Shown here in pieces: positions 1 to 13,286 of a stretch of DNA of 26,194 bases (its first letter is position 1; the number at the start of each line of letters is the position of its first letter). The stretch is from Segatella copri. Lineage in GTDB: Bacteria; Spirochaetota; Spirochaetia; Sphaerochaetales; Sphaerochaetaceae. Where the stretch lies: positions 8,750 through 34,943 of the forward strand of contig CAVDPO010000154.1 in assembly GCA_963610855.1 (NCBI GenBank). Reading direction: 5' to 3'. Position numbers and translations under genes: made by a program. The notes beneath the pieces were generated by a model, which did not search any database, was not told the origin of the DNA, and saw only the letters and a program-made list of their open reading frames with translations.

Positions 1-190
1 CTCCAGGGGGATCTGGAACAAGGTTTAGAATACTCATTGCAGTAGTTGTCTTACCTGCGCCAGTTTCTCCTACAAGTCCCAAAGTTCTTTCTTTTCCAAT
101 ACTAAAAGAAATTCCATTTACAGCTCTTACGATTCCGTCTTCTGTTTCATATCGAACGACAAGATCTTTTACTTCAATTATATTTTCCAT
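1..190 (-). CDS. oppD: Oligopeptide/dipeptide ABC transporter ATP-binding subunit (OppD/DppD-like), 5' part only; runs off the window edge
   Basis: Not in the ORF track. Manual translation from ATG at 190: [63 protein letters not shown], with Walker [14 protein letters not shown] upstream; directly downstream of the permease genes. Confidence 0.92.
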
Positions 191-201
191 ATTGCCGTCC
201 T

Positions 202-1104
202 TTATTTTTTAAGTTTAGGGTCCATAGCATCTCTAAGACCATCACCAAGAAGGTTTAGAGCAAGAACCGTGAACATAATTGCGAGTCCTGGGAATAAGCA
301 CATCCATCCAGATGAGCGAATATAAGAACGACCGTCTGAGAGCATAGCTCCCCATTCTGGAGTAGGAGGGGATATACCAACACCCAAGAAGCTAAGTGAA
401 GATGCAGAAATAATATTAGAACCTACTCTAAGAGTTACCTGAACAATAATTGGAGAAAGACAGTTTGGAAGAATATGTTTTAATATAATCTTCCAAGTAG
501 GTAGTCCAATTGCTCTTCCAGCTTCAATATATTCCTGATCTCTTACAGTCATAATTGAAGCTCTTGCAATTCTAGCAAACCCGGCAAACGAGCCCAAGGC
601 CATTGCAATCAACAGGTTTACCATACTCGTACCCAAAAGTGATACAACAACAACTGCCAACATAATATAAGGAATAGAGTAGAAAATATCTGTTGCTCTC
701 ATTATGAGGTTATCAATAAATCCACCGTAATAGCCAGCAATGGCGCCAAAGAAAAGCCCTACTACAAGCCCCAAAGCCGTTGCTCCAAAACTTATGAACA
801 GTGAATATTTTGCGCCGTAAAGAACACGAGCAAAAATATCACGTCCCATGTTATCTGTTCCAAAAATATGTTCTTTACATGGTGCAAGGAATCTATCTTT
901 TGACATTGAGATAATGTCTTTATCGTAATCGTAAATAAAACTGGCAAGAGTAGTCGCAAGAATTAAAAGAATAAGGAACGCAGCTCCAAGCATAGCGCCC
1001 TTGTTCTTTCTAAGTCTTCTCCAAGTTTCTTGAGCCAAAGACCTTCCACGATACGCAATCTCTCCGTTTGGAGTTATTTCATAGTTATCTTTTTTCTTTT
1101 TCAT
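202..1104 (-). CDS. oppC: Peptide ABC transporter permease (OppC/DppC-like)
   Basis: [22 protein letters not shown] loop ([19 protein letters not shown]), PEWGAML and [11 protein letters not shown]. Start moved to MKKKK (1104), just after the oppB stop, to avoid the 68-nt overlap of the track ORF. Confidence 0.93.
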
Positions 1105-1108
1105 AGCA

Positions 1109-2044
1109 TCAACCCTTTCCTGAATACTGAGCTTTGATTCTAGGGTCGCAGAAGGCATAAATAATATCGACAACAAGGTTAATTAATGCCATGACGACAC
1201 AGCACAGAATAATTGACCCCGTAACCATTGGTGTGTCTCGTTTATTAATAGAGTCGACAACAAGTCTTCCAATTCCTGGCCATCCAAAAACGGTCTCAGC
1301 AAGTGCAGAACCTGTCATAACAAAGCTAAACTGCATTCCAATTGCAGTTACTATAGGAATCATTGCGTTTCTTAGTCCGTGATTGTAAATAACACGTCTG
1401 CGAGAAGCGCCTTTTGCTTTTGCAGTTGTCATATAGTCCTGTCGAAGAACGTCAAGCATAGCACTTCTTGTTGTTCTAGTAAGAAGAGCTGCAAGACTTA
1501 ATCCAACAGTAATAGCAGGAAGAATTAGGTATCTAATGCCACCTGTTCCTCCGCTAGGTAACCATCCAAGTTTAAGTGAGAACAAAATAATAAGCATAAG
1601 ACCAAGCCAAAAGTTAGGCATTGAAACTCCAAATAGTGCAGCAACTGTTGCAAGAGTGTCTTTCCAAGTGTTCTCATGAAGAGCTGTATAAATTCCTAAT
1701 GGAACAGAAATTATACTCGCAAATATAAGGGCAGTACCCCCTAAAATAAGTGTCATGTGTAAGCGGCCCATAAACGTTTTGAATACGTCTTGCCCGCTAA
1801 TATAAGATGTCCCCATATCTCCTGTAAGGATACCTCCTACATAACGAAAGTATCTCACAAAGAAAGGATCATTAAATCCCATCTCTTCCCTAAGTTGCTG
1901 TCTTTGTTCGTACGTAGCATTTTCAGGAAGAAGTTGGTCTGCAGGGTCTCCTCCTGCAAGATCCATTGCCCAAAATATAAGCAATGAAGTGACTAGCAAG
2001 GTTGGAATAATGATTATCAACCTTTTAAGTATGTATTTAATCAT
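1109..2044 (-). CDS. oppB: Peptide ABC transporter permease (OppB/DppB-like)
   Basis: MIKYILKRL N-terminus, GDPA, SMPNFWLG, EAA loop (DYMTTAKAKG) and ETVFGWPGIG. Confidence 0.94.
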   Translation of the reverse strand: MIKYILKRLIIIIPTLLVTSLLIFWAMDLAGGDPADQLLPENATYEQRQQLREEMGFNDPFFVRYFRYVGGILTGDMGTSYISGQDVFKTFMGRLHMTLILGGTALIFASIISVPLGIYTALHENTWKDTLATVAALFGVSMPNFWLGLMLIILFSLKLGWLPSGGTGGIRYLILPAITVGLSLAALLTRTTRSAMLDVLRQDYMTTAKAKGASRRRVIYNHGLRNAMIPIVTAIGMQFSFVMTGSALAETVFGWPGIGRLVVDSINKRDTPMVTGSIILCCVVMALINLVVDIIYAFCDPRIKAQYSGKG

Positions 2045-2076
2045 GCTTTTTACGTTCCCGGTTTAATGAAATTAGC

Positions 2077-2106
2077 ATGGAAGAACCGATTTCTCGGTTC
2101 TTCCAT
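2077..2106 (-). terminator. Perfect 13-bp hairpin between the binding-protein and permease genes (partial terminator or mRNA-stabilising stem)
   Basis: ATGGAAGAACCGA (2077-2089) / TCGGTTCTTCCAT (2094-2106); GAAA tetraloop on the - strand; no long U-tract follows. Confidence 0.7.
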
Positions 2107-2129
2107 AAATTTAAGCGTAATAAATAAAA

Positions 2130-3698
2130 TTACAGCTCAATGTAAGCAAGGGACCAGTCATGAGCACCACCACCCTGGAGGTACTGACCTTTAAGGCCCT
2201 TGTTATAAGCGATAACTAGATCTGGAACATAAAGAGGAATTTGTGGAACGAGTTCTACAAGATAGTTCTGAAGGTCATGAGAATACTGTAAGCGTAACTC
2301 TGGATTCTTCTCTGTGAGAACTTTATCAGCCATTTCGTCTACGTAAGAATCCTTAAGCTGGTGATAGTTTGTAGGATAATTTGTATAGAAGATTTCTCTG
2401 TAAGTCTCGTCAACACGTGCAGCAATGTTCCATCTCCACAGGAAGAGTTCTTGGTGTCCATTAGCACACTCTGTCTTGAGAGTTGCTTGGTCCATAGACT
2501 TAATTACTACGTTAATTCCAATTTCCTTCAAGTTAGCCTGAATAATAGGAGCTATAGTCTTGTAAGGGTTGTCTGTTGCAGCTGTAAGCTCAAGTGTAAG
2601 CTCGCCTGGCTTGTATCCAGCTTCTGCTAAGAGTTTCTTTGCTCTCTCAACATCATAAGCATATCCACCTTCAACTTCGTCGTTGTCAAGGAATGACCAT
2701 GCGCCTCTGTTAAGGATTGAAGTCTGCCACTGTCCTCTACCTTCAAGAACAATGTCTACAATTGCCTGTTTGTCAATAGCACAAGAGATAGCTTGTCTGA
2801 GTTTCTTGTTTGTAATCTTTTCAACGTTGAAGCCCATGTAGAACAATCTTGTTCCAGCCTGTGTATGAACTGTAATGTTTTTGTCTTCTGCCAAGAATTT
2901 AAGGTCAGTTGTAGGTGGGTCAATACAAACATCAATTTCTCCGTTCTGGAGAGCAATTGCGCGCTGTGAATCTTCAAGAAGGAATTTGTAAGTGATTTCT
3001 TTTGCTTTTGGCATTGCATCTTTATTCCAATAATCTTCAACAGCTTCGTATGTTACATACTGTCCATTCTTCCATTCTTTGAACTTGAAAGGACCAGATC
3101 CAATAAGCCATGGCTCTGAGTTGTTAGGATCTTCATAAGCAGCCTTGCTTTGAATACAAAGAGGATAACCTGTAAGGCTATAGATAAGTTCATTACTGTA
3201 TGCACTTGTCTCAATTTCAACTGTGTATTCATCAAGAGCCTTAACTCCAACAATAAGTCCCAATGTTCCAGAAACTCTTGAAATGTTTGTATCTGGGGAC
3301 TTTGCTCTGTTAAGAGTAAACTCTACGTCATACGCTGTAACAGGAGTCTTGTTAGCATCATTAAAGTGAGCATTGCGAACAAGGTGGAATACGAGGTGTG
3401 TATCATCTACCCATTCCCATGACTCTGCCAGTTCAGGTTTTACTTCATAACCATTGTTTCCATCTGTCCAAATAAGTCTCTCGTGAGAAAGAGCAAAACA
3501 GTTATTGTTAATTTGGTCGTTTTGCATCATTGGGTTTTGAGTGTTGATTTCCTGAGCAACACCAATTACAAGAGTGTCTTTAATCTTTGGGCCACTAGAA
3601 GCGGTTGTTGTGCTAGAAGAAGCTTCCTTGCCTCCATTTGCGAAAACACAGGTCAAAGTCATCATTGCAATGAGCATAAGAGCTAATGTTTTTTTCAT
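2130..3698 (-). CDS. oppA: Family 5 extracellular solute-binding protein (OppA/DppA-like)
   Basis: Signal peptide ending VFANGGKE, PELAESWEW, PVTAYDVEFT, IGSGPFKFKEW and LRQAISCAIDKQAI; GGAGG RBS upstream. Confidence 0.93.
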   Translation of the reverse strand: MKKTLALMLIAMMTLTCVFANGGKEASSSTTTASSGPKIKDTLVIGVAQEINTQNPMMQNDQINNNCFALSHERLIWTDGNNGYEVKPELAESWEWVDDTHLVFHLVRNAHFNDANKTPVTAYDVEFTLNRAKSPDTNISRVSGTLGLIVGVKALDEYTVEIETSAYSNELIYSLTGYPLCIQSKAAYEDPNNSEPWLIGSGPFKFKEWKNGQYVTYEAVEDYWNKDAMPKAKEITYKFLLEDSQRAIALQNGEIDVCIDPPTTDLKFLAEDKNITVHTQAGTRLFYMGFNVEKITNKKLRQAISCAIDKQAIVDIVLEGRGQWQTSILNRGAWSFLDNDEVEGGYAYDVERAKKLLAEAGYKPGELTLELTAATDNPYKTIAPIIQANLKEIGINVVIKSMDQATLKTECANGHQELFLWRWNIAARVDETYREIFYTNYPTNYHQLKDSYVDEMADKVLTEKNPELRLQYSHDLQNYLVELVPQIPLYVPDLVIAYNKGLKGQYLQGGGAHDWSLAYIEL

Positions 3699-3840
3699 TT
3701 TTTCCCTCCGTTTTGGTTTTAAGAGAACAAAAATATGTTCTCAACGGACATGATTGTAACATACATAGATGAAATTTTGGGAAAAAAGTAGTAAAATTAG
3801 AGTAAAAAAATAGCAAAGGTGAAAAAAGCCTTATAGAGCC

Positions 3841-4020
3841 ATGATTTACAACAGTTGTATTAATAAAGAAGAAAAGCAAGAAAAAGATACTAAAGCAGAA
3901 CAACGCACTGACACAAAAAACAGCAAGGAAGGTGGAACCTACTGCTGTATGGAGTGTGGAAAACGTTTTGCAACCCACGGAGCTTACATTTTACACCTAA
4001 AAGAAGAACATGCAATTTAA
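3841..4020 (+). CDS. Small (59 aa) protein with a single classical C2H2 zinc finger
   Basis: Absent from the ORF track (shorter than every listed ORF). Translation: MIYNSCINKEEKQEKDTKAEQRTDTKNSKEGGTYCCMECGKRFATHGAYILHLKEEHAI. C36-x2-C39-x3-F-x8-H52-x4-H57 fits the classical C2H2 pattern. It fills an otherwise empty 420-nt intergenic gap. The RBS is weak. Confidence 0.75.
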   Translation: MIYNSCINKEEKQEKDTKAEQRTDTKNSKEGGTYCCMECGKRFATHGAYILHLKEEHAI

Positions 4021-4069
4021 GTTTCTATAGAGGGCCAATTCTTGTAGAGTTTTTGTAAAACAGCTTTTG

Positions 4070-4098
4070 TTGCCAGCTCCATTTTTCTGTGTTAAATT
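4070..4098 (+). promoter_or_regulatory. Putative sigma70 promoter for the DUF2188 gene
   Basis: TTGCCA-17 nt-TAAATT with a TG extension, followed by GGAGG and ATG at 4120. Confidence 0.55.
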
Positions 4099-4119
4099 AG
4101 CACATGGAGGGTTCAATCT

Positions 4120-4425
4120 ATGGCAACCAAAAAAGATAAAAAAGCTCCCAAAAAGGAAGTTGTAGTAGAAACTGAAGCAAAAAAAGAACCAAAAGATGTA
4201 CATGAGCTTCTTTGGGTTCAAGAAAAAGGCTGGGGCGTAAAGCGTCAAGGAAGTGAGAAAGTCATTAAATATTTTAAGACCAAACTTGAAGCAACTGAAT
4301 ATATTGTACAAGTTAGTGGCAACCAAGGAACAAGAGTTGTTATTCACCTTAAAAACGGAAAGTTCCAAAAGTTTGATAATGCTATGAGAGCTCTCTCTTA
4401 TGCAAAAGAAGATAAAGAAGAATAA
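4120..4425 (+). CDS. DUF2188-family protein with a Lys/Glu-rich N-terminus
   Basis: GWGVKRQGSEKVIKYFKTKLEA...VVIHLKNGKFQ resembles the DUF2188 pattern (W-x-VK..G..F.T..EA..IH..G..Q); strong GGAGG RBS. Confidence 0.75.
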   Translation: MATKKDKKAPKKEVVVETEAKKEPKDVHELLWVQEKGWGVKRQGSEKVIKYFKTKLEATEYIVQVSGNQGTRVVIHLKNGKFQKFDNAMRALSYAKEDKEE

Positions 4426-4475
4426 ACTTCCTACAAAGGTTTTTGTAAAACCTCAAAGATAAAAAATTTTTTAGA

Positions 4476-4524
4476 GACCACTGAGAATTTTTGCTTAATG
4501 AGAGGTTCACAGTGGTTTTTATTT
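4476..4524 (+). terminator. Possible intrinsic terminator after the DUF2188 gene
   Basis: ACCACTG (4477-4483) / CAGTGGT (4510-4516), with an imperfect inner stem, followed by TTTTATTT. Confidence 0.45.
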
Positions 4525-4548
4525 ACACAAACCGCTATTATTCAAATT

Positions 4549-5157
4549 ATGAAAACAATACTTAGAATTTTAATAATACTTGATTTTGCAGCTGTAGTGT
4601 TTATTCCAAACATTTATCTATCTCGCTCAATAATGATCCCAATGTTTGCAGTAATGATTGGCCTTGTTGTTCTTTATTGGTTTGCAATGTTTTGGGTAAG
4701 TAAAAAAGATGCCGTAAAAGTGCTGAAGAAAGACCCCATTTTTGATATTTTTGCAGGAAAAATTCCAACAGATCCATCTGCAGATCTAACAAGAGGCCGT
4801 CTTTGCATTGTAGACGACACATTAAAACTCTTACAACGTAATGATGATAAAGAAAGAAAAAATGCACCATGCAAAGAAGTTTGGTCATTAAAAACTAAAG
4901 AAATAACATCCCTTGGCTTTGGAAAAGTTCTTCCAGCCCGCAAAGGTCTTATCATTTATATGGGAGATGATGAAGTCAAATTCACTTGCTCAAAAATAAC
5001 TAAGCAAAAAGAAGAATTGTATAAAGCTCTGGGATGGAATTTAGAATTATTGAAAGCTCAGCAAGAGAAACAGCAAAACGACAGCCAAATCATAGAAACA
5101 AAAACCCATGAAAAAGAAGAACACCAAAAGGTAGTGCAAAATGAAAACCAACAATGA
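4549..5157 (+). CDS. Hypothetical membrane protein (two N-terminal TM helices, soluble beta-rich domain, Q/E/K-rich tail)
   Basis: Hydrophobic segments at the N-terminus. Start moved to MKTILR (4549) because the track's upstream extension overlaps the terminator-like hairpin. Overlaps the next gene by 17 nt. Confidence 0.75.
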   Translation: MKTILRILIILDFAAVVFIPNIYLSRSIMIPMFAVMIGLVVLYWFAMFWVSKKDAVKVLKKDPIFDIFAGKIPTDPSADLTRGRLCIVDDTLKLLQRNDDKERKNAPCKEVWSLKTKEITSLGFGKVLPARKGLIIYMGDDEVKFTCSKITKQKEELYKALGWNLELLKAQQEKQQNDSQIIETKTHEKEEHQKVVQNENQQ

Positions 5158-5662
5158 GCCAAATAATTCAATTAGAATTATCACCACAGGTGGTACTTTT
5201 GACAAACTCTATGATGAAATTCGAGGCGAACTAACTTTCAAAGACTCTCATCTACCACGAATACTAGAGCAATCTCGTTGCACAATAAAAACTAACGTTG
5301 AAAACTGCCTTGCAATAGACAGCCTTTACATGACACAAGAACACAGGCTCAAAATAGCAAAAGCTTGCCTAGAAAGCCCAGAAGATAGAATTGTCGTAAT
5401 CCATGGGACCGATACCATGGTAGACACCGCAAAAGTAATTGCAAAAGAACTTGGAGATAATCCTCAAAAAACTATTGTACTCACTGGTGCAATGGTTCCG
5501 TATGCACTTGAAAGCTCAGACTCTGTATTTAATCTTGGTTGTGCAATAATGGCAGTACAACTTAAAAAAAGCGGAGTCTACGTTTGCATGTGTGGCCAAA
5601 TTTTTAACTACGACAATGTACGAAAAAACAAAGAAAAAGGCATTTTTGAAAAACTAAACTAG
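5141..5662 (+). CDS. Short-chain L-asparaginase (N-terminal catalytic domain only)
   Basis: Both class 1 asparaginase Thr motifs are present (ITTGGTF and IHGTDTM), plus IVLTGAM; 173 aa. Confidence 0.85.
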   Translation: MKTNNEPNNSIRIITTGGTFDKLYDEIRGELTFKDSHLPRILEQSRCTIKTNVENCLAIDSLYMTQEHRLKIAKACLESPEDRIVVIHGTDTMVDTAKVIAKELGDNPQKTIVLTGAMVPYALESSDSVFNLGCAIMAVQLKKSGVYVCMCGQIFNYDNVRKNKEKGIFEKLN

Positions 5663-5750
5663 AAACTACACAAAGAAGCAAAGCCACACTAAAAAACAGT
5701 TCCTAAGTTTCACAAACGCCATTTACACTTTTTCTCTTTGTCTTTTACTC

Positions 5751-6386
5751 TTAACCTTTCACAATATCAATAATTGTCTTTGCACTTGAAATTGTACCAC
5801 TTTCTCCTTTGTTAAAACCAAAACCCCAATCAACACAAATGCAATCACAACCAGCCAAAGAAGCACCATCTTTATCTATAGTAGTATCGCCAACCAAAAC
5901 ACTCTGAGACGGCGTTACACCCATTTTCTCAAAACCTTTCTTCAAAAGGCCTGCCTTTGTAGCCTCTCCTGCAAGATCCAAACCTAGCATTTGGTCAAAA
6001 AGATTTACAATACCAAAATGCGTACACATTTCAATAACAAGGTCTTCATTCTTCATAGACGCAACAGCAAGCTTACAACCCATAGACTTCAAAGTTTTGA
6101 GAGTATCTACAATTCCAGGATAAAAAGAAGCTAAAAACCTACCCTCTTTTTCATAATAAATCCGGTACTGTCTCACAAGCTCTTTTACAATATCATCATC
6201 TTTGACACCAAAAGTTATCCTAAAACAGTCCCCAATAGGAGGCCCAATAAAAGAGCGCCAAACAGTATGCTCTTCATCAATTGGAAGTCCAAGTTTTTCC
6301 ATTGCATAACGCCCACCGGCATAAATGCCCGTAGATGTATCCATTAAAGTCCCATCAAAATCAAAAAAAACAGCCTTATATCTCAC
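5751..6386 (-). CDS. HAD-superfamily hydrolase (phosphoglycolate phosphatase/5'-nucleotidase-like)
   Basis: Motif I FDFDGTL, FIGPP cap, motif II VAS, Lys in TKA and motif IV VGDTTID. Confidence 0.9.
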   Translation of the reverse strand: MRYKAVFFDFDGTLMDTSTGIYAGGRYAMEKLGLPIDEEHTVWRSFIGPPIGDCFRITFGVKDDDIVKELVRQYRIYYEKEGRFLASFYPGIVDTLKTLKSMGCKLAVASMKNEDLVIEMCTHFGIVNLFDQMLGLDLAGEATKAGLLKKGFEKMGVTPSQSVLVGDTTIDKDGASLAGCDCICVDWGFGFNKGESGTISSAKTIIDIVKG

Positions 6387-7879
6387 TCATCACCCCTTTG
6401 TGCAATAGCAAGACCCATTTTTTCAACGACCTTCCATTGCCACGAAGAGAACACAAATTTTGTAATCTTATTATAAAGAGCACTCTCCAACACGCCATTT
6501 TCATTCAAATAAAGCTCAACAGAATGCCAAACATCACGCTTTTTTGCATACATGAGAGCGCCAATATGCTCCTTTCTTTGGATTTCAAGCATGGGGTCTT
6601 TTGACAACCTAAACACACAGACCGATATTGCCGTACTAGGAATTACAAGCACTTTATCACGCCCGTCATCTTTACAGGCACAAACAGCTTTATCAATCAT
6701 AGTAGAAAGCTCAACTCTTTGAACATCATCACAACTGTCAACATACGAAGTAAATGGATTTGGACTTCCAAATGCCTTCAACACAATATCCAAGACCCCT
6801 ATACTTGTGCTCTCGTTTTGTAGTTTTAGTTCTGGCACAGGTGCCATTTCTTGTTTTGGTTCTTGTATAAGCGCAGGCTCAACTTCTTGCTCCATCTCCA
6901 AAGAAGGTTCAACATTTGGCTTTATCTCTTGCTCCAAAATAGGATCACTTGACCTCTCAAGTTCCGGCTCTGCCACCGGCACCACCTCTAGATCCTCAAA
7001 GCAATCAAAAAGAGATTTTTCTTCATACGGGTCGCTCTCTTTATTGCAAGAAAACTCATTCTCACAAGAGACTTTGCTTTCACAAGGCTCTTCATTCTCC
7101 ACAGGAGAAAGAACAGCTAACATTTCACGAATATTTACAAGACTAAACCGTGTTACAAAACCATAATACCGCCCAGAATATTTAATAAATGGAGTTTCAA
7201 GATATTTTACAGAACTTCCAATAACACCATATGGCGAATCTTCTAAGACTTCCACAGATGAATACAAAAGAGATAAAAACTCACAAATAGACTCGTCTAA
7301 CGTACTTGTTTCTTGAACATCATAGCCCGCAAAGCCACAAGTAGTAGAATTTTCTGCATCAATTAAAGAAAAAAAGCTATTGTTTACATTTTCGTCATTA
7401 CAAACATTGACTAAATTTTCATTAGGAAAAACCTTAGAGTATAACTCACATCTAAGAGAAAACATACCATCAAGAGATGTCTTTCCCGTAGCTCTCTCTA
7501 AGAGCACACAATAATCAATATATCGCATTGTTGCTTTAAGATTTTCAATCATAAGACGGTGTAAATTACGGCAAGTTTTAGCCAACATTGAAGTCTCTTC
7601 ATCTAACGGTAAAAAATAGGCTTCTTTTTGGAACGCCATTGCGTGTAAAAACACAATAAGACAATCAGTAGCTTTTTTAGAAAAATTGTCATTGCCAAAA
7701 GAAAGATTGTGTTGATTTACATATTTTAGAGCACAAGCAATATTTACATTCAAAGCTTCTTTAACAAGCTCTTTTTTGTATAGCTCAAGATAAGAACTCT
7801 GCTGACTAATATTTTTTTGAAGCTTCTCAACAGAGATATTTGTCATCTCGTTCAAGTCCCATGAAAGATAGCAATCCAT
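6383..7879 (-). CDS. Hypothetical protein with a central acidic Glu/Pro-rich low-complexity linker
   Basis: 498-aa ORF with GGAG RBS; 4-nt ATGA-type overlap with the HAD gene; no family recognised with confidence. Confidence 0.75.
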   Translation of the reverse strand: MDCYLSWDLNEMTNISVEKLQKNISQQSSYLELYKKELVKEALNVNIACALKYVNQHNLSFGNDNFSKKATDCLIVFLHAMAFQKEAYFLPLDEETSMLAKTCRNLHRLMIENLKATMRYIDYCVLLERATGKTSLDGMFSLRCELYSKVFPNENLVNVCNDENVNNSFFSLIDAENSTTCGFAGYDVQETSTLDESICEFLSLLYSSVEVLEDSPYGVIGSSVKYLETPFIKYSGRYYGFVTRFSLVNIREMLAVLSPVENEEPCESKVSCENEFSCNKESDPYEEKSLFDCFEDLEVVPVAEPELERSSDPILEQEIKPNVEPSLEMEQEVEPALIQEPKQEMAPVPELKLQNESTSIGVLDIVLKAFGSPNPFTSYVDSCDDVQRVELSTMIDKAVCACKDDGRDKVLVIPSTAISVCVFRLSKDPMLEIQRKEHIGALMYAKKRDVWHSVELYLNENGVLESALYNKITKFVFSSWQWKVVEKMGLAIAQRGDE

Positions 7880-7907
7880 CTCAAACTCCCAGTCTTTTAG
7901 CTTCTAT

Positions 7908-9101
7908 TTAGCTTCTATTATTATAAGCTTTAAGCCCCTCTTCTAAACATTTACATGCACGAGCTAAATCGTCAACATTCAAAACATAAGCAATTCGCAC
8001 TTCATTTTTTCCAAGACCAGAGGTTTCATAAAAACCCTCTGCCGGAGCAAGCATAACAGTCTCATTGTTATATGAAAAATCTTTAAGCATAAAAGTTGCA
8101 AAATCTTCTGCATCTTCAACAGGAAGTTTTGCAATAAGATAAAAAGCTCCTTTTGGTTTTGCACATTTAACACCTGGAATTTTCCTTAATGCTTCTACGA
8201 TAAAATCACGCCTTTTTTCATATTCCTTATGAACTTCATCCATGTAATCTTGTGGAGCACTTAGGGCAGCCAAAGCTGCATACTGTTCAACAGAAGGAGG
8301 ACAAAGCCTTGCTTGGCTTAATTTCAAAGTCTCTCTTATAACATTTTTGTTACGGCTTACAATTGCACCAACTCTAGCACCACACATTGAAAAACGTTTT
8401 GAGAAACTGTCTACGCAAATAACTCTGTCTGCATAATTTGTATACTTGAGAATACTTGTAAAAACTTCGCCGTCGTAACAAAACTCCCTGTAAACTTCAT
8501 CTACTATTAAAAACAAATCATGCTTAACGCAAATGTCTAAGATTGTTTTATATTCTTGAGGTGTATACACATGTCCTGTTGGGTTGTTAGGACTGCAAAG
8601 AAGAATTGCCATTGTCTTTTTTGTAATCTTAGACTCAATAACCTCTAAAGGTGGTAGTACAAAACCATTGTCAAAAACACTTGTAACAGGAACAATTTTT
8701 ACATTTGCCATACCAGCAAAAGAGTGCACATTTGTGTAATAAGGCTCTGGAACTATAATCTCGTCATCTGGGTCACATAATGTCATAAAAGAAAAAAGCA
8801 ATGCTTCAGAACCACCAGTTGTAATTAGTATATCACTTGCTTCAACATCTACGCCAAGACGCTTGTAATATTGAACAAGACCTTGCCTTAAAGGCATGTC
8901 TCCGTCACTTTCTCCATAAGAGATAATTCCATACGGGTAGTTGTGAACAGCATCTATTGCAACTTGAGGAGTTTTAATGTCAGGCTGACCAATATTCAAA
9001 TGGTAAACTTTTATACCTTTTGCTTTTGCTTGTATGGCATAAGGAGACAGCCTTCTAATAGGAGATGCTTGAAAACCTCTTATTCTTGCCGATATTTCCA
9101 T
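7908..9101 (-). CDS. PLP-dependent class I/II aminotransferase (aspartate aminotransferase-like)
   Basis: LNIGQPD, TTGGSEAL, SPNNPTG, DEVY, SFSKRFSMCGARVG (PLP lysine) and PKGAFY. Confidence 0.93.
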   Translation of the reverse strand: MEISARIRGFQASPIRRLSPYAIQAKAKGIKVYHLNIGQPDIKTPQVAIDAVHNYPYGIISYGESDGDMPLRQGLVQYYKRLGVDVEASDILITTGGSEALLFSFMTLCDPDDEIIVPEPYYTNVHSFAGMANVKIVPVTSVFDNGFVLPPLEVIESKITKKTMAILLCSPNNPTGHVYTPQEYKTILDICVKHDLFLIVDEVYREFCYDGEVFTSILKYTNYADRVICVDSFSKRFSMCGARVGAIVSRNKNVIRETLKLSQARLCPPSVEQYAALAALSAPQDYMDEVHKEYEKRRDFIVEALRKIPGVKCAKPKGAFYLIAKLPVEDAEDFATFMLKDFSYNNETVMLAPAEGFYETSGLGKNEVRIAYVLNVDDLARACKCLEEGLKAYNNRS

Positions 9102-9127
9102 TTATGAGACTCCTCCTAATTTTGTAT

Positions 9128-10405
9128 TCAGTTTTGGAACAACTCTCCCTGTTTCTTGGTTGCTGCACTTTGACTGTTGTCAACGAGTTTTTGAACAATT
9201 TTTCTATTATCCAAAAGTGGGCTTATGGCTCTTCCATGATGTAGGCGGCTAATTACTCTAGCGAAAAGCTCGCTAGTATCGGCCTGTATAAACCATTGTT
9301 TGGACAAGAGATCGTCCCCATGGTATACAGCGTTTGTGCCAATTACGTAATCAAAAACGCCCTCTGCATGAGCTTGGTCAAACGTCTCGACTGCATTGCC
9401 ATTGAAGAAAGGAAGGCTCGTGATGCAAATGATTTTCTTTGCGCCCATGTTGCGCAGCGTTTTCATAGCAATAAGCATTGTCCCACCAGAGGCCAACATG
9501 TCATCAGCAATTAGAACTGTCTTGTTTGCAACATCTCCCAAAAGGCTAATATTCTTTATGTTCGTGTTCTTTGCACCCGTTGTGACTATTGAGTAATCTC
9601 TTTCCTTATAAAGCATTGCAAGTGGTCTGTGAAGAACTTGAGCATAAAACTTGTTTCGTGCAACAGCTCCAGTGTCAGGCGATACAACAGTCAAATCAGG
9701 GTCCGATATATCAATAATTTTCTTAAGCTCCACAAGAATTTGGTATGAAGCATGAAGGCTCTCCAAATGTAGAGAGCTAAAGCAATTTTCAATTTCTTTA
9801 CAGTGGATATCAAGTGTAATTATTCTTTCAACTCCAAGGCTCTCGCACATTCTACCAAATACTGCTGCAGAGAGCGCCTCTCTAGAACTCTTTTTGTGCT
9901 GTCTTGCATACGGATACGTTGGAAGTACAAGTGTAACACTTTCTGCTCCCGCCAAATTAACAGCATTAACGAGTGTAAAAAGCATCATTATGTGGTCATT
10001 TATTGAAAAACTTATTGGCTCATCATAGCCAGACATCTTAAGAGGTGTGTTGTTTGTAACGTCATATATAATAAAGAGTCTCATGCCACGGACAGGCTCA
10101 AGGATTTCTGATTTAACTTCTCCGTTTAGAAACCTTGTGTATTTTACTGGAATTTCAAGATTTGGGCACTGATATGAGAGAGGAACCTTTCCTGATGGGA
10201 TTTTTTTACTTCCCAAATCCTCAATGAAACTCACGTCCCTAAGCACTTTTTCCTCTGGGATTTCATACCTCACTGCAAGGTTCTTTGCAAGCTTGTCGTA
10301 ACGCTCAATGTAAAGTCTTCTCAAATGCTTTACAACCTTACCTGAAAGGTACTCTGACCCTAAGCCTGTGATAACACCAAGCTTATTTGGTTTTATGATG
10401 CTCAT
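9128..10405 (-). CDS. prs: Ribose-phosphate pyrophosphokinase (long form)
   Basis: RFLNGEVK, YPYARQHK, TLDIH, VVSPDTGAV and PRPP-binding loop IADDMLASGGT. Start moved to MSIIKP (10405), behind AAGGAG. Confidence 0.92.
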   Translation of the reverse strand: MSIIKPNKLGVITGLGSEYLSGKVVKHLRRLYIERYDKLAKNLAVRYEIPEEKVLRDVSFIEDLGSKKIPSGKVPLSYQCPNLEIPVKYTRFLNGEVKSEILEPVRGMRLFIIYDVTNNTPLKMSGYDEPISFSINDHIMMLFTLVNAVNLAGAESVTLVLPTYPYARQHKKSSREALSAAVFGRMCESLGVERIITLDIHCKEIENCFSSLHLESLHASYQILVELKKIIDISDPDLTVVSPDTGAVARNKFYAQVLHRPLAMLYKERDYSIVTTGAKNTNIKNISLLGDVANKTVLIADDMLASGGTMLIAMKTLRNMGAKKIICITSLPFFNGNAVETFDQAHAEGVFDYVIGTNAVYHGDDLLSKQWFIQADTSELFARVISRLHHGRAISPLLDNRKIVQKLVDNSQSAATKKQGELFQN

Positions 10406-10519
10406 AAAGACTCCTTGAAACAGAAGATAATATACACAAACACTGTTACACTTATCTTCTGTTCCTAAATCCAGACACGACCTTACTCTTTCACTAGAGA
10501 TAGCCGTACTGCTGAACAC

Positions 10520-10549
10520 ATTATATTAACAGAGCGCCAAAAGTATCAA
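10520..10549 (-). promoter_or_regulatory. Putative sigma70 promoter of the prs-aminotransferase-hypothetical-HAD operon
   Basis: TTGATA-18 nt-TATAAT on the - strand, about 115 nt upstream of the prs ATG. Confidence 0.6.
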
Positions 10550-10557
10550 TACAATTT

Positions 10558-11553
10558 CTAAGGCTTGTATGGTTCTGAAGTATTTGCGCTACCAAATGTT
10601 GCACCTCCTGAGCAAGTTATATACCAGTCGTTACATGTATTTGTGTCTGCTGTAACAATGTTGGCGCCTGTTATTTTCCTTGCCATTGAGCGGGTTGCTG
10701 TAGAATAAGAAGAATCAATAGCATGAGCCTTCCAAAAGCCTCCATTTATCACCCACAATGCTCTGTCTCGTGCTTTGGACGTGCCAAAACCGTCCATGCT
10801 TTCGCCAAAATCGGAATAAATTACTGCGTCAAGAATTGTTGCACCGGGAGAGGGCGAGTTTGCAAGTACCAACGTGCCATTGTTATCAGATGGGTTTTTT
10901 TGTGTGACAAAGGCAAAATTGAGCCCGTCTCCTTTCACATTCTCAGCCGGAAAATCCTCTTTCACCCACCAAAGCACAATGTACGTGCCACTACTGACGG
11001 TGATGTCGGGGAAAATGTACTTTGCGTCATAATCGTCAGGCGTGCCGCAATAAAGAGTTACACCTGCAAGAGAACCGCCGGTTAGAGCATATAATTCAGT
11101 TTTGTCGGGATTGCGAGCATCTCGTTTGGTTGTAAACTCATTTATGATGAGATTTGGCACATTAGGATTGTAGCCCCACACACCCACAGAAAACCCCGTC
11201 GAATTGCCATAATAATCTTGAACTCGCCCCTCCAAGATAGCTTCTTGTCCCGCTGGTAGACTTGCATTGAGCGTAACATAGACCGCTTTCCCGTCTGCTC
11301 TAGCTACGAATGTCCCAAAAGAGTTTCCATAAACTCTAACTGGTTCATTGAAGTCTATTCTTACTATTGAACTTGCAACAGAGCTTACTTTTAGTAGCAC
11401 CGGTGGCTCGTTGTCCTTATCCAAGAAAACATTTATAAACGCTAGGCGCTCCTCTGGTTGCGTACAGGCAATAAAAAGCCCTAGTGTTGTTACAATGGCT
11501 ACAAATACAATAGCTACAACAACTAAAAATTTCTTTTTTTGTATCTTTTCCAT
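10558..11553 (-). CDS. Putative lipoprotein with an Ig-like segment and a lamin-tail domain (LTD)
   Basis: Basic N-terminus, hydrophobic core and FIAC lipobox-like Cys; PPVLL..RIDFNEPV Ig-like strands; LTD-like LIINEF..DKTELY..SLAGVTL..YIFP..GTYIVL; GGAGG RBS. Confidence 0.7.
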   Translation of the reverse strand: MEKIQKKKFLVVVAIVFVAIVTTLGLFIACTQPEERLAFINVFLDKDNEPPVLLKVSSVASSIVRIDFNEPVRVYGNSFGTFVARADGKAVYVTLNASLPAGQEAILEGRVQDYYGNSTGFSVGVWGYNPNVPNLIINEFTTKRDARNPDKTELYALTGGSLAGVTLYCGTPDDYDAKYIFPDITVSSGTYIVLWWVKEDFPAENVKGDGLNFAFVTQKNPSDNNGTLVLANSPSPGATILDAVIYSDFGESMDGFGTSKARDRALWVINGGFWKAHAIDSSYSTATRSMARKITGANIVTADTNTCNDWYITCSGGATFGSANTSEPYKP

Positions 11554-11570
11554 TCTTTTAATCCTCCTGT

Positions 11571-11781
11571 ATCCTGAGAGTGTCTTTTAAGCCCCAAGTG
11601 TTTTTTGTTCCTCGTAGGTTGTATTCTTCTCGAGTGCCGTTTACTCCTATGCCAAGGTTTTCAAAAACCTCTTACAAGGTCTTACATAGGATAAGTACAA
11701 AAAAGGTGCACTTTTCATTCACAGGTACTGAGGTTCTTTTAAGAACGGGATTATTTAAGGGGTTTCGCTTGTAAAAGGGAT
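11571..11781. ncRNA. Candidate long rod-shaped structured RNA (6S-like architecture, unverified)
   Basis: Seven or more collinear nested helices found by eye (see findings). The + strand is favoured by extra G-U pairs. No promoter identified. Confidence 0.3.
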
Positions 11782-11823
11782 GGGCTGCCAGGTGGTCAAC
11801 GACCTAGGTACTGGCAGCCCTTT
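11782..11823. terminator. GC-rich hairpin, probable terminator (of the DUF5655 gene and/or a + strand RNA)
   Basis: GGGCTGCCAG (11782-11791) / CTGGCAGCCC (11811-11820), a perfect 10-bp stem with an inner GGTC/GACC helix; short T-runs on both strands. Confidence 0.6.
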
Positions 11824-11852
11824 GGAAAAGAAAAAAAGGTTTTATTGGGGGT

Positions 11853-12245
11853 TTATGCTCTTCTCAGATAACTGAGTTTAGAGTATTCATACGATTGTCT
11901 AATCCAACTCTTGAGTTCTGCGTCAATATTGGCATTGGAATAGATAGATACATGGTAGACATAAGACCCATTAGGAACGGGACGAATTGTCTTTTCAATC
12001 CTTGGATTTGAAATTCGTTTTCTATTTGTAAAAGCCACTGTAAAAAGAGCAGCGGTATCAACATCTTCAGAAGGAAGAGAAATATAAGCAAAGCCAATTG
12101 AAGTTCTAAAAGATATTACAGAATCTTGGACAGCAATTTTTGCATCAGGACAAAACTCGCTTATATATGTCTTGAGATTTTCAAAGACTTCATACGCTTT
12201 TGAATTACCATCAAAAAAAGCTTTTGCTTTATCTTCTCCAGACAT
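11853..12245 (-). CDS. DUF5655-like hypothetical protein
   Basis: 130 aa; ISFR..FAYI, ISNPRIEK, YVYHVSI and IDAELKSWIRQSYE resemble DUF5655/YjbR-like proteins; GAGGAGG RBS. Confidence 0.7.
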   Translation of the reverse strand: MSGEDKAKAFFDGNSKAYEVFENLKTYISEFCPDAKIAVQDSVISFRTSIGFAYISLPSEDVDTAALFTVAFTNRKRISNPRIEKTIRPVPNGSYVYHVSIYSNANIDAELKSWIRQSYEYSKLSYLRRA

Positions 12246-12279
12246 TGGCTTTCCTCCTCTTTTTTTAGTTTACATCTTG

Positions 12280-12309
12280 ATTATAAAAGCTATGGTGAAA
12301 TTTTGTCAA
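12280..12309 (-). promoter_or_regulatory. Consensus sigma70 promoter for the DUF5655 gene
   Basis: Exact TTGACA-18 nt-TATAAT on the - strand. Confidence 0.75.
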
Positions 12310-12559
12310 TTCCTTATATAGCAAAAAGTTACAAGATTTTTTACTTATACATTTTCTATATAACTCCACTAGGGAAAGCACATTAAAATCGGTCTAAAAT
12401 AATTTTACTTCTTAAAGATTTCAATGAGTTTCAATACGTGCGTTTTTCGTGCATCTTTGTCGTCTTGCCAACGTAAAATTTTTTGAAAAATCTTTTCTAT
12501 TGAAAAGTCTTTGCAAAAACCTTTTGCAAAAAAACCTGTACATAGTCCTGAGCTTTTTC

Positions 12560-12587
12560 TTGACTACCCCCCCCTGCCATATAAAAT
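12560..12587 (+). promoter_or_regulatory. Putative sigma70 promoter for the P13-like gene, with a C8 tract in the spacer
   Basis: TTGACT-16 nt (ACCCCCCCCTGCCATA)-TAAAAT. Confidence 0.55.
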
Positions 12588-12710
12588 TGGACACAACGCG
12601 GGCACCAAGACTTAACGCACACCAAGACGTAAGGCATGGCGTAAGGCCAAGTGTCAGAGCGGAAATGTCAACTAGAGGAGTGTGCGCTCGCACGGAGGGG
12701 GAAATAAGTT

Positions 12711-13286
12711 ATGAAAAAAATGCTTCTTTTATTTATCATTATTTCAATGGTAATTCCTAGCGTTTTTGCAGCTAAGTTAAGCTCAAAAGCACAAAGTGAA
12801 ATCCTTGTTTTTACGGATATGGCTACTACAATGGATGCTAACCAAAAAATGCTTTTCTATAACCAGAATAAGAAAGGCATGACAGCTCCACTTTTACTGA
12901 ATATTTTTCTAGGATGCGGTATTGGTTCATATGTTGCTGGGGATACAACAGGGGGAACCATTGGACTTGTAGGAGAACTTGGTTCTGCAGCGCTTTTTTA
13001 TGTTGGATATATAACTGCGGAAAAAGGCATCATTGCTAGAGGTGAGGATGGTAGTGCAACAGAATGGACTGAAGATTTTGATAGAGGAGCTATAATTTCC
13101 TATGCTAGCTTGGCTGCTTTGGCAGCGGTTAGAATATATGAAATAGTTCGCGCTTGTACTTATACATCAGAATATAATAGGCAATTGAGTAATGCTCTGT
13201 ATTCATCACCTATTCAAGTTGGATTTGCTCCTATTCTTGAAAACAATGAGATGAAACTCTCTTTGTCTGCAAAAGTATCATTCTAA
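12711..13286 (+). CDS. Borrelia P13-family (porin-like) membrane protein
   Basis: Signal peptide ending VFA; KMLFYNQNKK..PLLLNIFLGCGIGSYVAGDTTGG resembles the P13 core (PFLLNLFLGFGIGSFxQGD); C-terminal alternating strand ending in Phe; GGAGGGGG RBS. Confidence 0.75.
   Translation: MKKMLLLFIIISMVIPSVFAAKLSSKAQSEILVFTDMATTMDANQKMLFYNQNKKGMTAPLLLNIFLGCGIGSYVAGDTTGGTIGLVGELGSAALFYVGYITAEKGIIARGEDGSATEWTEDFDRGAIISYASLAALAAVRIYEIVRACTYTSEYNRQLSNALYSSPIQVGFAPILENNEMKLSLSAKVSF

Follow-up and report, generated by a model that had tools for sequence, protein, structure and literature searches.

A 59-residue protein with a single predicted classical C2H2 zinc finger, encoded in one clade of the Sphaerochaetaceae

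Classical C2H2 zinc fingers of the TFIIIA/Krueppel type (PF00096) have been called practically absent from bacteria, where a 2013 survey of UniProt counted 489 proteins, corresponding to 0.003% of the genes (PMC3541406). C2H2 proteins that bind DNA typically carry tandem arrays of fingers and use the helix positions −1, 2, 3, and 6 (PMC4330361), while those with few fingers add extensions for DNA binding (PMC3541406). The protein considered here is encoded at positions 3841 to 4020 (+) of a stretch of 26,194 nucleotides, analyzed as a whole and hereafter called the window, from a genome of the family Sphaerochaetaceae (G000). It resembles the classical fingers in the spacing of the ligands, in the aromatic residue before the first cysteine, in the core phenylalanine, and in the predicted fold. 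It differs from them in having one finger and no interfinger linker, a tyrosine for the core leucine, an extra invariant cysteine, a neutral charge, a bacterial host, and a profile score under the cut-off.

The nearest precedent for a protein of this size and layout is AFV1p06 (2LVH; Acidianus filamentous virus 1), an archaeal virus protein that also has 59 residues, one finger, disordered ends, a threonine at helix position −1, and a leucine at +6. It matches the modeled fold of the window finger with a Z score of 3.7 and an rmsd of 1.8 Å over 30 residues, and a profile search of solved structures gave no sequence relationship between the two. Unlike the window protein, AFV1p06 is described as using a glutamate for the fourth ligand, as having an additional strand and a positively charged helix face, and as binding DNA at micromolar levels, with basic residues at −2, +1, and +2 (PMC3541406). 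Among bacteria, Ros/MucR proteins (PF05443), the customary reference, share the Cys2His2 ligands, but they are described as having a spacer of 9 residues, a larger domain with a second helix, a length of about 142 aa, and an N-terminal oligomerization region (PMC9779718). The window protein has a spacer of 12 residues, 59 aa, and one predicted helix, and it ends two residues past the last histidine. Membership in Ros/MucR was rejected on the spacer and on the PF05443 score (15.6 bits versus 25.4, on linker residues 8 to 46), and the spacing is indeed classical, as had been proposed in an earlier note on this DNA. Finally, the one-domain zinc-finger microproteins of haloarchaea (C(P)XCG) are also stand-alone metal fingers of less than 70 aa that are easily missed in annotation, but they are described as carrying two Cys-pair motifs (PMC11241148), whereas the window protein has one Cys pair and two histidines.

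The glycines G31 and G32 precede the finger. A double-glycine leader precursor (TIGR01847) was nevertheless rejected, since NCBIfam gives no leader match and the distant relative P0007 lacks the GG. Double-glycine leaders end in the hydrophobic-spaced motif EL-x-x-V/I-x-GG. Another genome, G100, encodes a 71-aa ORF (L070:976-1188, +) in which a double-glycine bacteriocin-type leader (TIGR01847, 17.7 versus 15.7 bits) is followed by a classical C2H2 core, and whose product is possibly an exported zinc finger; profile search revealed no homology between this protein and the window finger protein. Matches to the TIGR01847 leader numbered 17 in G100 and 6 in G098 (loci including L162 to L175), with highly variable cores, and a C2H2 core was present in 1 of the 11 distinct leader precursors read. 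A different arrangement was seen at L076, L093, and L083 (in G151, G078, and G270, respectively), which encode proteins of 83 to 105 aa with two tandem finger-like repeats of the form aromatic-x-C-x2-C-x3-F ... H-x-C-P-R-H. The ligand set of these repeats may be Cys3His, and L076 passes the thresholds of zf-C2H2_4 (33 bits versus 27) and zf-C2H2 (26.3 versus 25.2).

The window ORF runs from ATG3841 to TAA4020 and translates to 59 aa. It starts with the motif M-I-Y-N-x-C-I, which includes Cys6 (3841 to 3864, +), was recognized in alignments, and is missing in P0007. The motif is followed by a charged linker (3865 to 3918, +), predicted to be disordered, whose length varies among orthologs by in-frame indels only (1, 3, and 9 codons). 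The finger itself spans Y34 to H57 (3940 to 4011, +) and has the form Y34-C35-C36-x2-C39-x3-F43-x5-Y49-x2-H52-x4-H57, in which 12 residues separate C39 from H52; the hidden ORF and its classical spacing are thus as the earlier note had claimed. The putative ligands C36, C39, H52, and H57 fit the pattern C-x2-4-C-x12-H-x3-5-H and are invariant in the seven aligned sequences, as is the extra cysteine, C35. Tyr49 stands where classical fingers have the core leucine, and all three core positions (Y34, F43, and Y49) are aromatic and invariant in the aligned family.

PF00096 was the best Pfam match of the protein (E = 0.00087), with a score of 20.1 bits against a gathering cut-off of 25.2. Scores in the family were 20.1, 20.0, 18.3, and 17.3 bits, all under the cut-off, and P0007 gave no match. 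The finger is therefore filed under the classical fold class and not as a curated member of PF00096, so that the zf-C2H2 assignment suggested earlier held as the best match and fell short of the threshold. A strict pattern of the finger matched only this ORF among 2,808,582 residues of the six-frame translated genome, and nothing in five residue shuffles. A loose PS00028-like pattern had 8 matches at 7 places in the genome versus 1 to 6 per shuffle and is thus no evidence on its own.

Orthologs were found at the same site in 2 of 26 congeners, G013 (78% identical) and G004 (73%), both assembled separately from G000. Across the three genomes, 29 of the 33 residues encoded by codons 27 to 59 are invariant, and 18 of the 22 variable codons are silent in the frame of the finger. 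The other five frames had 0 to 2 silent codons, except for one antisense frame (11 of 20), which is interrupted by stops in all three genomes; a conserved antisense ORF was rejected. Variable columns of the finger fell 3, 1, and 16 times on codon positions 1, 2, and 3, respectively, and the pairwise dN/dS was 0.00 to 0.09 (Fisher P = 3e−4 to 2e−12). The flanking DNA aligns poorly among the three carriers, yet all three share the ATG, the stop codon, and the frame. We rejected an internal start at M37, since it would remove C36 and since codons 27 to 36 are also under selection. Judging from these comparisons of syntenic orthologs, the ORF is a genuine gene under purifying selection, which is concentrated on the finger, with a linker free to vary in length and charge. 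The dN/dS below 1, the invariance of C36, C39, F43, H52, and H57, and the intact frame with Cys and His kept in close relatives all agree with what the earlier note had expected of a real gene.

That note had also warned of a weak ribosome binding site, and by eye none of the three carriers showed a Shine-Dalgarno-like sequence at the expected distance. A candidate sigma-70-type promoter lies at 3769 to 3797 (+), a weak call based on a 9/12 match to the consensus in a region with 6 promoter-like sites (3.2 ± 1.8 in shuffles), and by eye the alignment shows a similar element at the corresponding position of G013 and G004. The lack of a Shine-Dalgarno site, together with the fact that the loose pattern arises several times per genome by chance, would fit an ORF that is not a gene at all and represents a chance intergenic motif, a pseudogene, or eukaryotic contamination. 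We regard this as scarcely credible, given the shared position of the ORF in three genomes that were assembled separately, the codon-position pattern of the finger, a host-typical codon use (exceeding that of 76% of 784 long ORFs), and a GC content of 0.37, equal to that of the genome. The dS of the finger gene ranged from 0.75 to saturation, far above the 0.37 of the neighboring DUF2188 gene (one pair, shortened stretch), which perhaps results from weak codon selection at low expression.

AlphaFold2 modeled the whole protein with a pLDDT of 57.5, with a hairpin, a helix at residues 46 to 57, and values below 50 for residues 9 to 31. Residues 28 to 59 modeled alone reached a pLDDT of 85.2 and showed a hairpin plus a helix. 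The finger is thus predicted to adopt the beta-beta-alpha fold, and the N-terminal half is probably disordered, both as suggested in the earlier note. In fold searches of three libraries, nearly all top matches of the finger were C2H2 fingers, including Kaiso (6dfa; rmsd of 0.7 Å over 27 residues) and ZFAT ZF8 (2rv5; Z score of 4.1), and the H-x4-H finger of ADR1 (1paa) was among the solved classical fingers compared. None of the matches reached an E value of 0.001 or a Z score of 5. This was expected, since the finger has only about 30 residues. Zinc binding would follow from established knowledge of the C2H2 motif; among haloarchaeal microproteins, predicted zinc fingers are described as sometimes lacking a metal or binding a different one (PMC11241148).

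The finger gene was found in 3 of the 258 genomes of the host family (148 of them at least 90% complete), corresponding to 3 of 27 congeners. The carriers (G000, G013, and G004) form one side of a branch in a midpoint-rooted ClpX tree (support 100/99; 23 rows, with the partial G022 left out and G005 and G011 truncated). In ClpX clusters, congeners are labeled Sphaerochaetaceae bacterium, Sphaerochaeta sp., and Spirochaetales bacterium, labels from which the host family was assigned. Two further named contigs with the gene were not counted as genomes, since both collections hold one genome per species. A public contig with the gene from that same search (L021) is deposited as "Bacteroidaceae bacterium"; the gene was otherwise found only in the spirochaete clade, and the label may be wrong. 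The search of the family gave 12 matches at E ≤ 0.01, of which 3 were true; of the 9 dropped, 6 were copies of a C4 ribbon protein, 1 was a transposase, and 2 were ORFs with internal stops. PF00096 itself was too insensitive across the family, since it missed even the finger gene. The near-identical C4 zinc-ribbon ORFs of 60 to 75 aa (L053 to L058, in six genomes from two other genera of this family) are found next to transposase-like genes, in surroundings that are otherwise unrelated, as though moved on an insertion element. Among 401 genomes sampled from the phylum, 3 matched, and only G000 was true, the other two carrying stops.

Protein collections from metagenomes added P0002, P0003, P0051 to P0055, and P0078. 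A more distant pair, P0007/P0050 (49 aa, 44% identical, E = 1.2e−8 against the core profile), keeps the charged N-terminal half and 15 invariant columns between Y34 and H57, and lacks the N-terminal motif, C6, and H46. A search with the single sequence returned 3 proteins, and a widened profile found 4 among 1,100 candidates. The profile searched against 1.84 billion representatives gave 47 matches, of which 2 were short single-finger proteins (P0002 and P0007) and 45 were long proteins with multiple matching stretches. This search had no length limit, and no fused or longer forms of the family were seen; a search for longer forms, which is weak evidence on this point, gave two weak matches among 8,000, a ZNF protein from an animal and a protein of the C4 type, neither of them homologous. 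No homologs were found in viral contigs, phages, or plasmids, nor in two metagenome scans, one of which gave no match and the other 4 unrelated loci. Three matches in the Herpetosiphon group were rejected as chance matches inside a longer enzyme, and the PHROGs matches were all weak (best E = 0.0011) and led to families without a known function. Look-alikes in the ESM Atlas, small C2H2 clusters of which several are archaeal, came without alignments and serve as leads only. The family is very small, restricted to one clade, and new, although its fold class is already known and rare in bacteria. A literature search restricted to main texts, with poor coverage of subscription journals, revealed no description of this family or of a characterized stand-alone classical finger in bacteria. 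On sequence grounds, the proposal of a stand-alone micro zinc-finger protein in a spirochaete (59 aa, one finger, under selection, with orthologs in two congeners) is supported.

The start of the oppA-like gene for a peptide-binding protein (2130 to 3698, −; PF00496, E = 3.3e−84), the first gene of a divergent peptide ABC operon, lies 142 nt from the ATG of the finger gene. On the other side, the finger gene precedes by 99 nt a DUF2188 gene (4120 to 4425, +; PF09954, E = 1.4e−10), which adjoins it only in the carrier clade. In sequence scans, this gene showed its own candidate promoter (4070 to 4098, +, with an extended −10) and a strong Shine-Dalgarno sequence (4106 to 4111, +), suggesting a separate transcription unit. 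An imperfect inverted repeat with an 18-nt spacer lies upstream of oppA (3728 to 3757); it is preserved in G004 with a paired change, but the G013 version is imperfect. Counting both strands, the genome contains 28 occurrences of the pattern of this repeat. Further downstream, at 5141 to 5662 (+), a protein of 173 aa consists of an N-terminal asparaginase domain (PF00710) alone, a short form kept in all the congeners inspected.

Comparison with sister genomes revealed that window positions 1 to 4460 (right edge approximate) belong to an inserted block of about 9.8 kb that is specific to the carrier clade. The block spans about 3460 to 13210 of the contig (G000:C154), equivalent to about −5290 to 4460 of the window, which places its left edge about 5.3 kb to the left of the window. 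It was absent from the site in the five sister genomes examined (G010, G019, G006, G023, and G026). In the sisters, a 670-aa gene and a 202-aa membrane gene (at 4549 of the window) stand head to head at 104 to 160 nt, compared with 9,940 nt in G000, where the edges of the block align to two halves of the sister intergenic region. The block encodes a 229-aa gene product, an OPT-family transporter (PF03169), a phosphodiesterase/metalloenzyme (PF01663/PF01676), OppFDCBA, the finger, and the DUF2188 protein, and the gene order is the same in G013 and G004 as far as their contigs reach. No integrase or transposase was seen in the block, and its GC content is 0.36 to 0.39 throughout, so that a single event and several steps are indistinguishable. 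We infer that the finger gene reached this site by transfer in the ancestor of the three species, inside a block with peptide transporters.

The earlier note had proposed the opp operon or the DUF2188 gene as a partner of the finger. No finger homolog was found within 1.5 kb of DUF2188 at 19 other congeneric loci (18 informative and one at a contig edge); two of these loci gave chance pattern tags on antisense frames. Of the 27 genomes in the genus, 23 have DUF2188 genes, whose surroundings are ordinary and varied, and the query had no match in the nearest sisters G010, G019, and G006 (95, 96, and 51% complete, respectively). The DUF2188 protein is 66 to 94% identical in 21 other genomes of the genus, with varying neighbors, and elsewhere DUF2188 has been tied to defense loci (10.1101/2022.04.27.489752). 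Likewise, no finger homolog lay upstream of oppA orthologs at the 11 other loci examined (14 of 16 oppA-ortholog loci were examined in all, with L110 and L111 left out). The oppA orthologs of G001, G097, and G113, 71 to 78% identical, lack the finger gene, and those at 45 to 52% identity are mostly found beside a gene that by eye is LacI-like. Since orthologs of both genes occur elsewhere without the finger, neither proposed link is conserved, and the synteny sought with them is not kept outside the carrier clade. What stays of the proposed partnership is a possible link with opp, as both belong to the same inserted block in the clade.

The reading that we favor, at about even odds, is that the finger is a zinc-stabilized protein-binding module on a flexible tether. 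The C-terminal 26 residues would fold around one zinc ion held by C36, C39, H52, and H57. A conserved uncharged surface, formed by the helix residues T45, G47, Y49, L51, and L53, by C35 and M37 of the hairpin, and by the hydrophobic last residue, would face a partner protein; the variable linker would be a mere tether and the N-terminal motif a second, dispensable contact. That the exposed uncharged residues C35, M37, T45, G47, L51, and L53 are kept across 44% identity speaks for a specific surface, and the 15 invariant columns from Y34 to H57 exceed what zinc binding alone would require. The net charge of the finger was −1 to +1 in all nine family sequences, compared with a mean of +2.2 over 342 fingers of long multi-finger proteins selected by their likeness to the window finger, of which 9% were at or below 0. 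The N-terminal part has a net charge of −4 to +1, so that a basic flank is absent. This neutral charge, the single finger, and the lack of a basic flank argue against sequence-specific DNA binding, and together with the conserved exposed surface they favor protein binding. Single fingers that mediate dimerization are described in flies (PMC12774644), and the EEA1-Rab5A entry (3mjh), an example of a protein-binding single finger, was among the fold matches listed. On the other side of the balance, the DUF2188 and oppA loci examined revealed no conserved neighbor outside the carrier clade, and AFV1p06 binds DNA. The residues at helix positions −1, 2, 3, and 6 (T, G, A, and L, with E for A in P0007) are each common in the comparison fingers (50, 88, 52, and 30 of 342). 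The Pfam scores below the cut-off, the metal-free precedent of haloarchaea, and the missing Shine-Dalgarno sequence were also counted against this reading.

The other functions considered explain parts of the same evidence. Unlikely, in our view, is a sensor or buffer of metal or thiols, in which C6, C35, and H46 would act as a second, weak binding site for zinc or as a redox switch closing the N-terminal motif onto the finger. These three residues are invariant in the five core sequences, C35 is also kept in P0007/P0050, and a metalloenzyme-family gene (PF01663/PF01676) lies in the inserted block, but P0007/P0050 lack C6 and H46, the N-terminal part is not folded in the model, and no zinc-uptake gene is among the neighbors listed. 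Nucleic-acid binding, suggested in the earlier note, is disfavored by the charge of the finger and by the lack of a basic flank. Its DNA-binding form, a regulator of the divergent opp operon that would probably bind weakly or with a partner's help, as AFV1p06 might suggest, is quite improbable. It would explain the divergent arrangement at 142 nt from oppA, the common inserted block, and the conserved patches in the shared promoter region of the three genomes. It is difficult to reconcile with a neutral finger lacking a basic flank, with the close oppA orthologs that do without the finger and the more distant ones that mostly neighbor a LacI-like gene, and with a candidate inverted repeat that is imperfect in G013 and frequent in the genome.

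Fold neighbors of the finger include a 43-residue chain of the 70S ribosome entry of Thermococcus kodakarensis (6skg_Bo; Z score of 3.3) and fingers of an RNA-editing complex (9dei), as would be expected of an RNA-binding or ribosome-associated small protein. These scores tie with those of every other C2H2 finger, the pI of 5.4 to 8.4 is not that of a basic protein, and presence in 3 of 27 congeners does not suit a core ribosomal role, so that this function is very unlikely. A bolder extension of the protein-binding module, for which we see only a slim chance, is a zinc- or thiol-switched adaptor that has C6, C35, and H46 as spare ligands, arrived with the peptide-uptake island, and tunes this island posttranslationally; stand-alone fingers would then be a native, overlooked bacterial class acting via proteins and not DNA.

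The finger gene escapes both the ORF-length and the Pfam thresholds behind counts of bacterial C2H2 proteins such as that of 2013. Another genus of the Sphaerochaetaceae has a second classical finger, unrelated to this one, which suggests that bacterial fingers may be undercounted. The range of three species, the uncultured hosts, and neighbors that give no functional clue limit what can be drawn from this gene, which is a clean case under selection and small enough to make and assay. If the adaptor reading were true, the protein would stand as a characterized classical finger of bacteria whose partner is defined, and as a living model for the role of single fingers before DNA-reading arrays arose.
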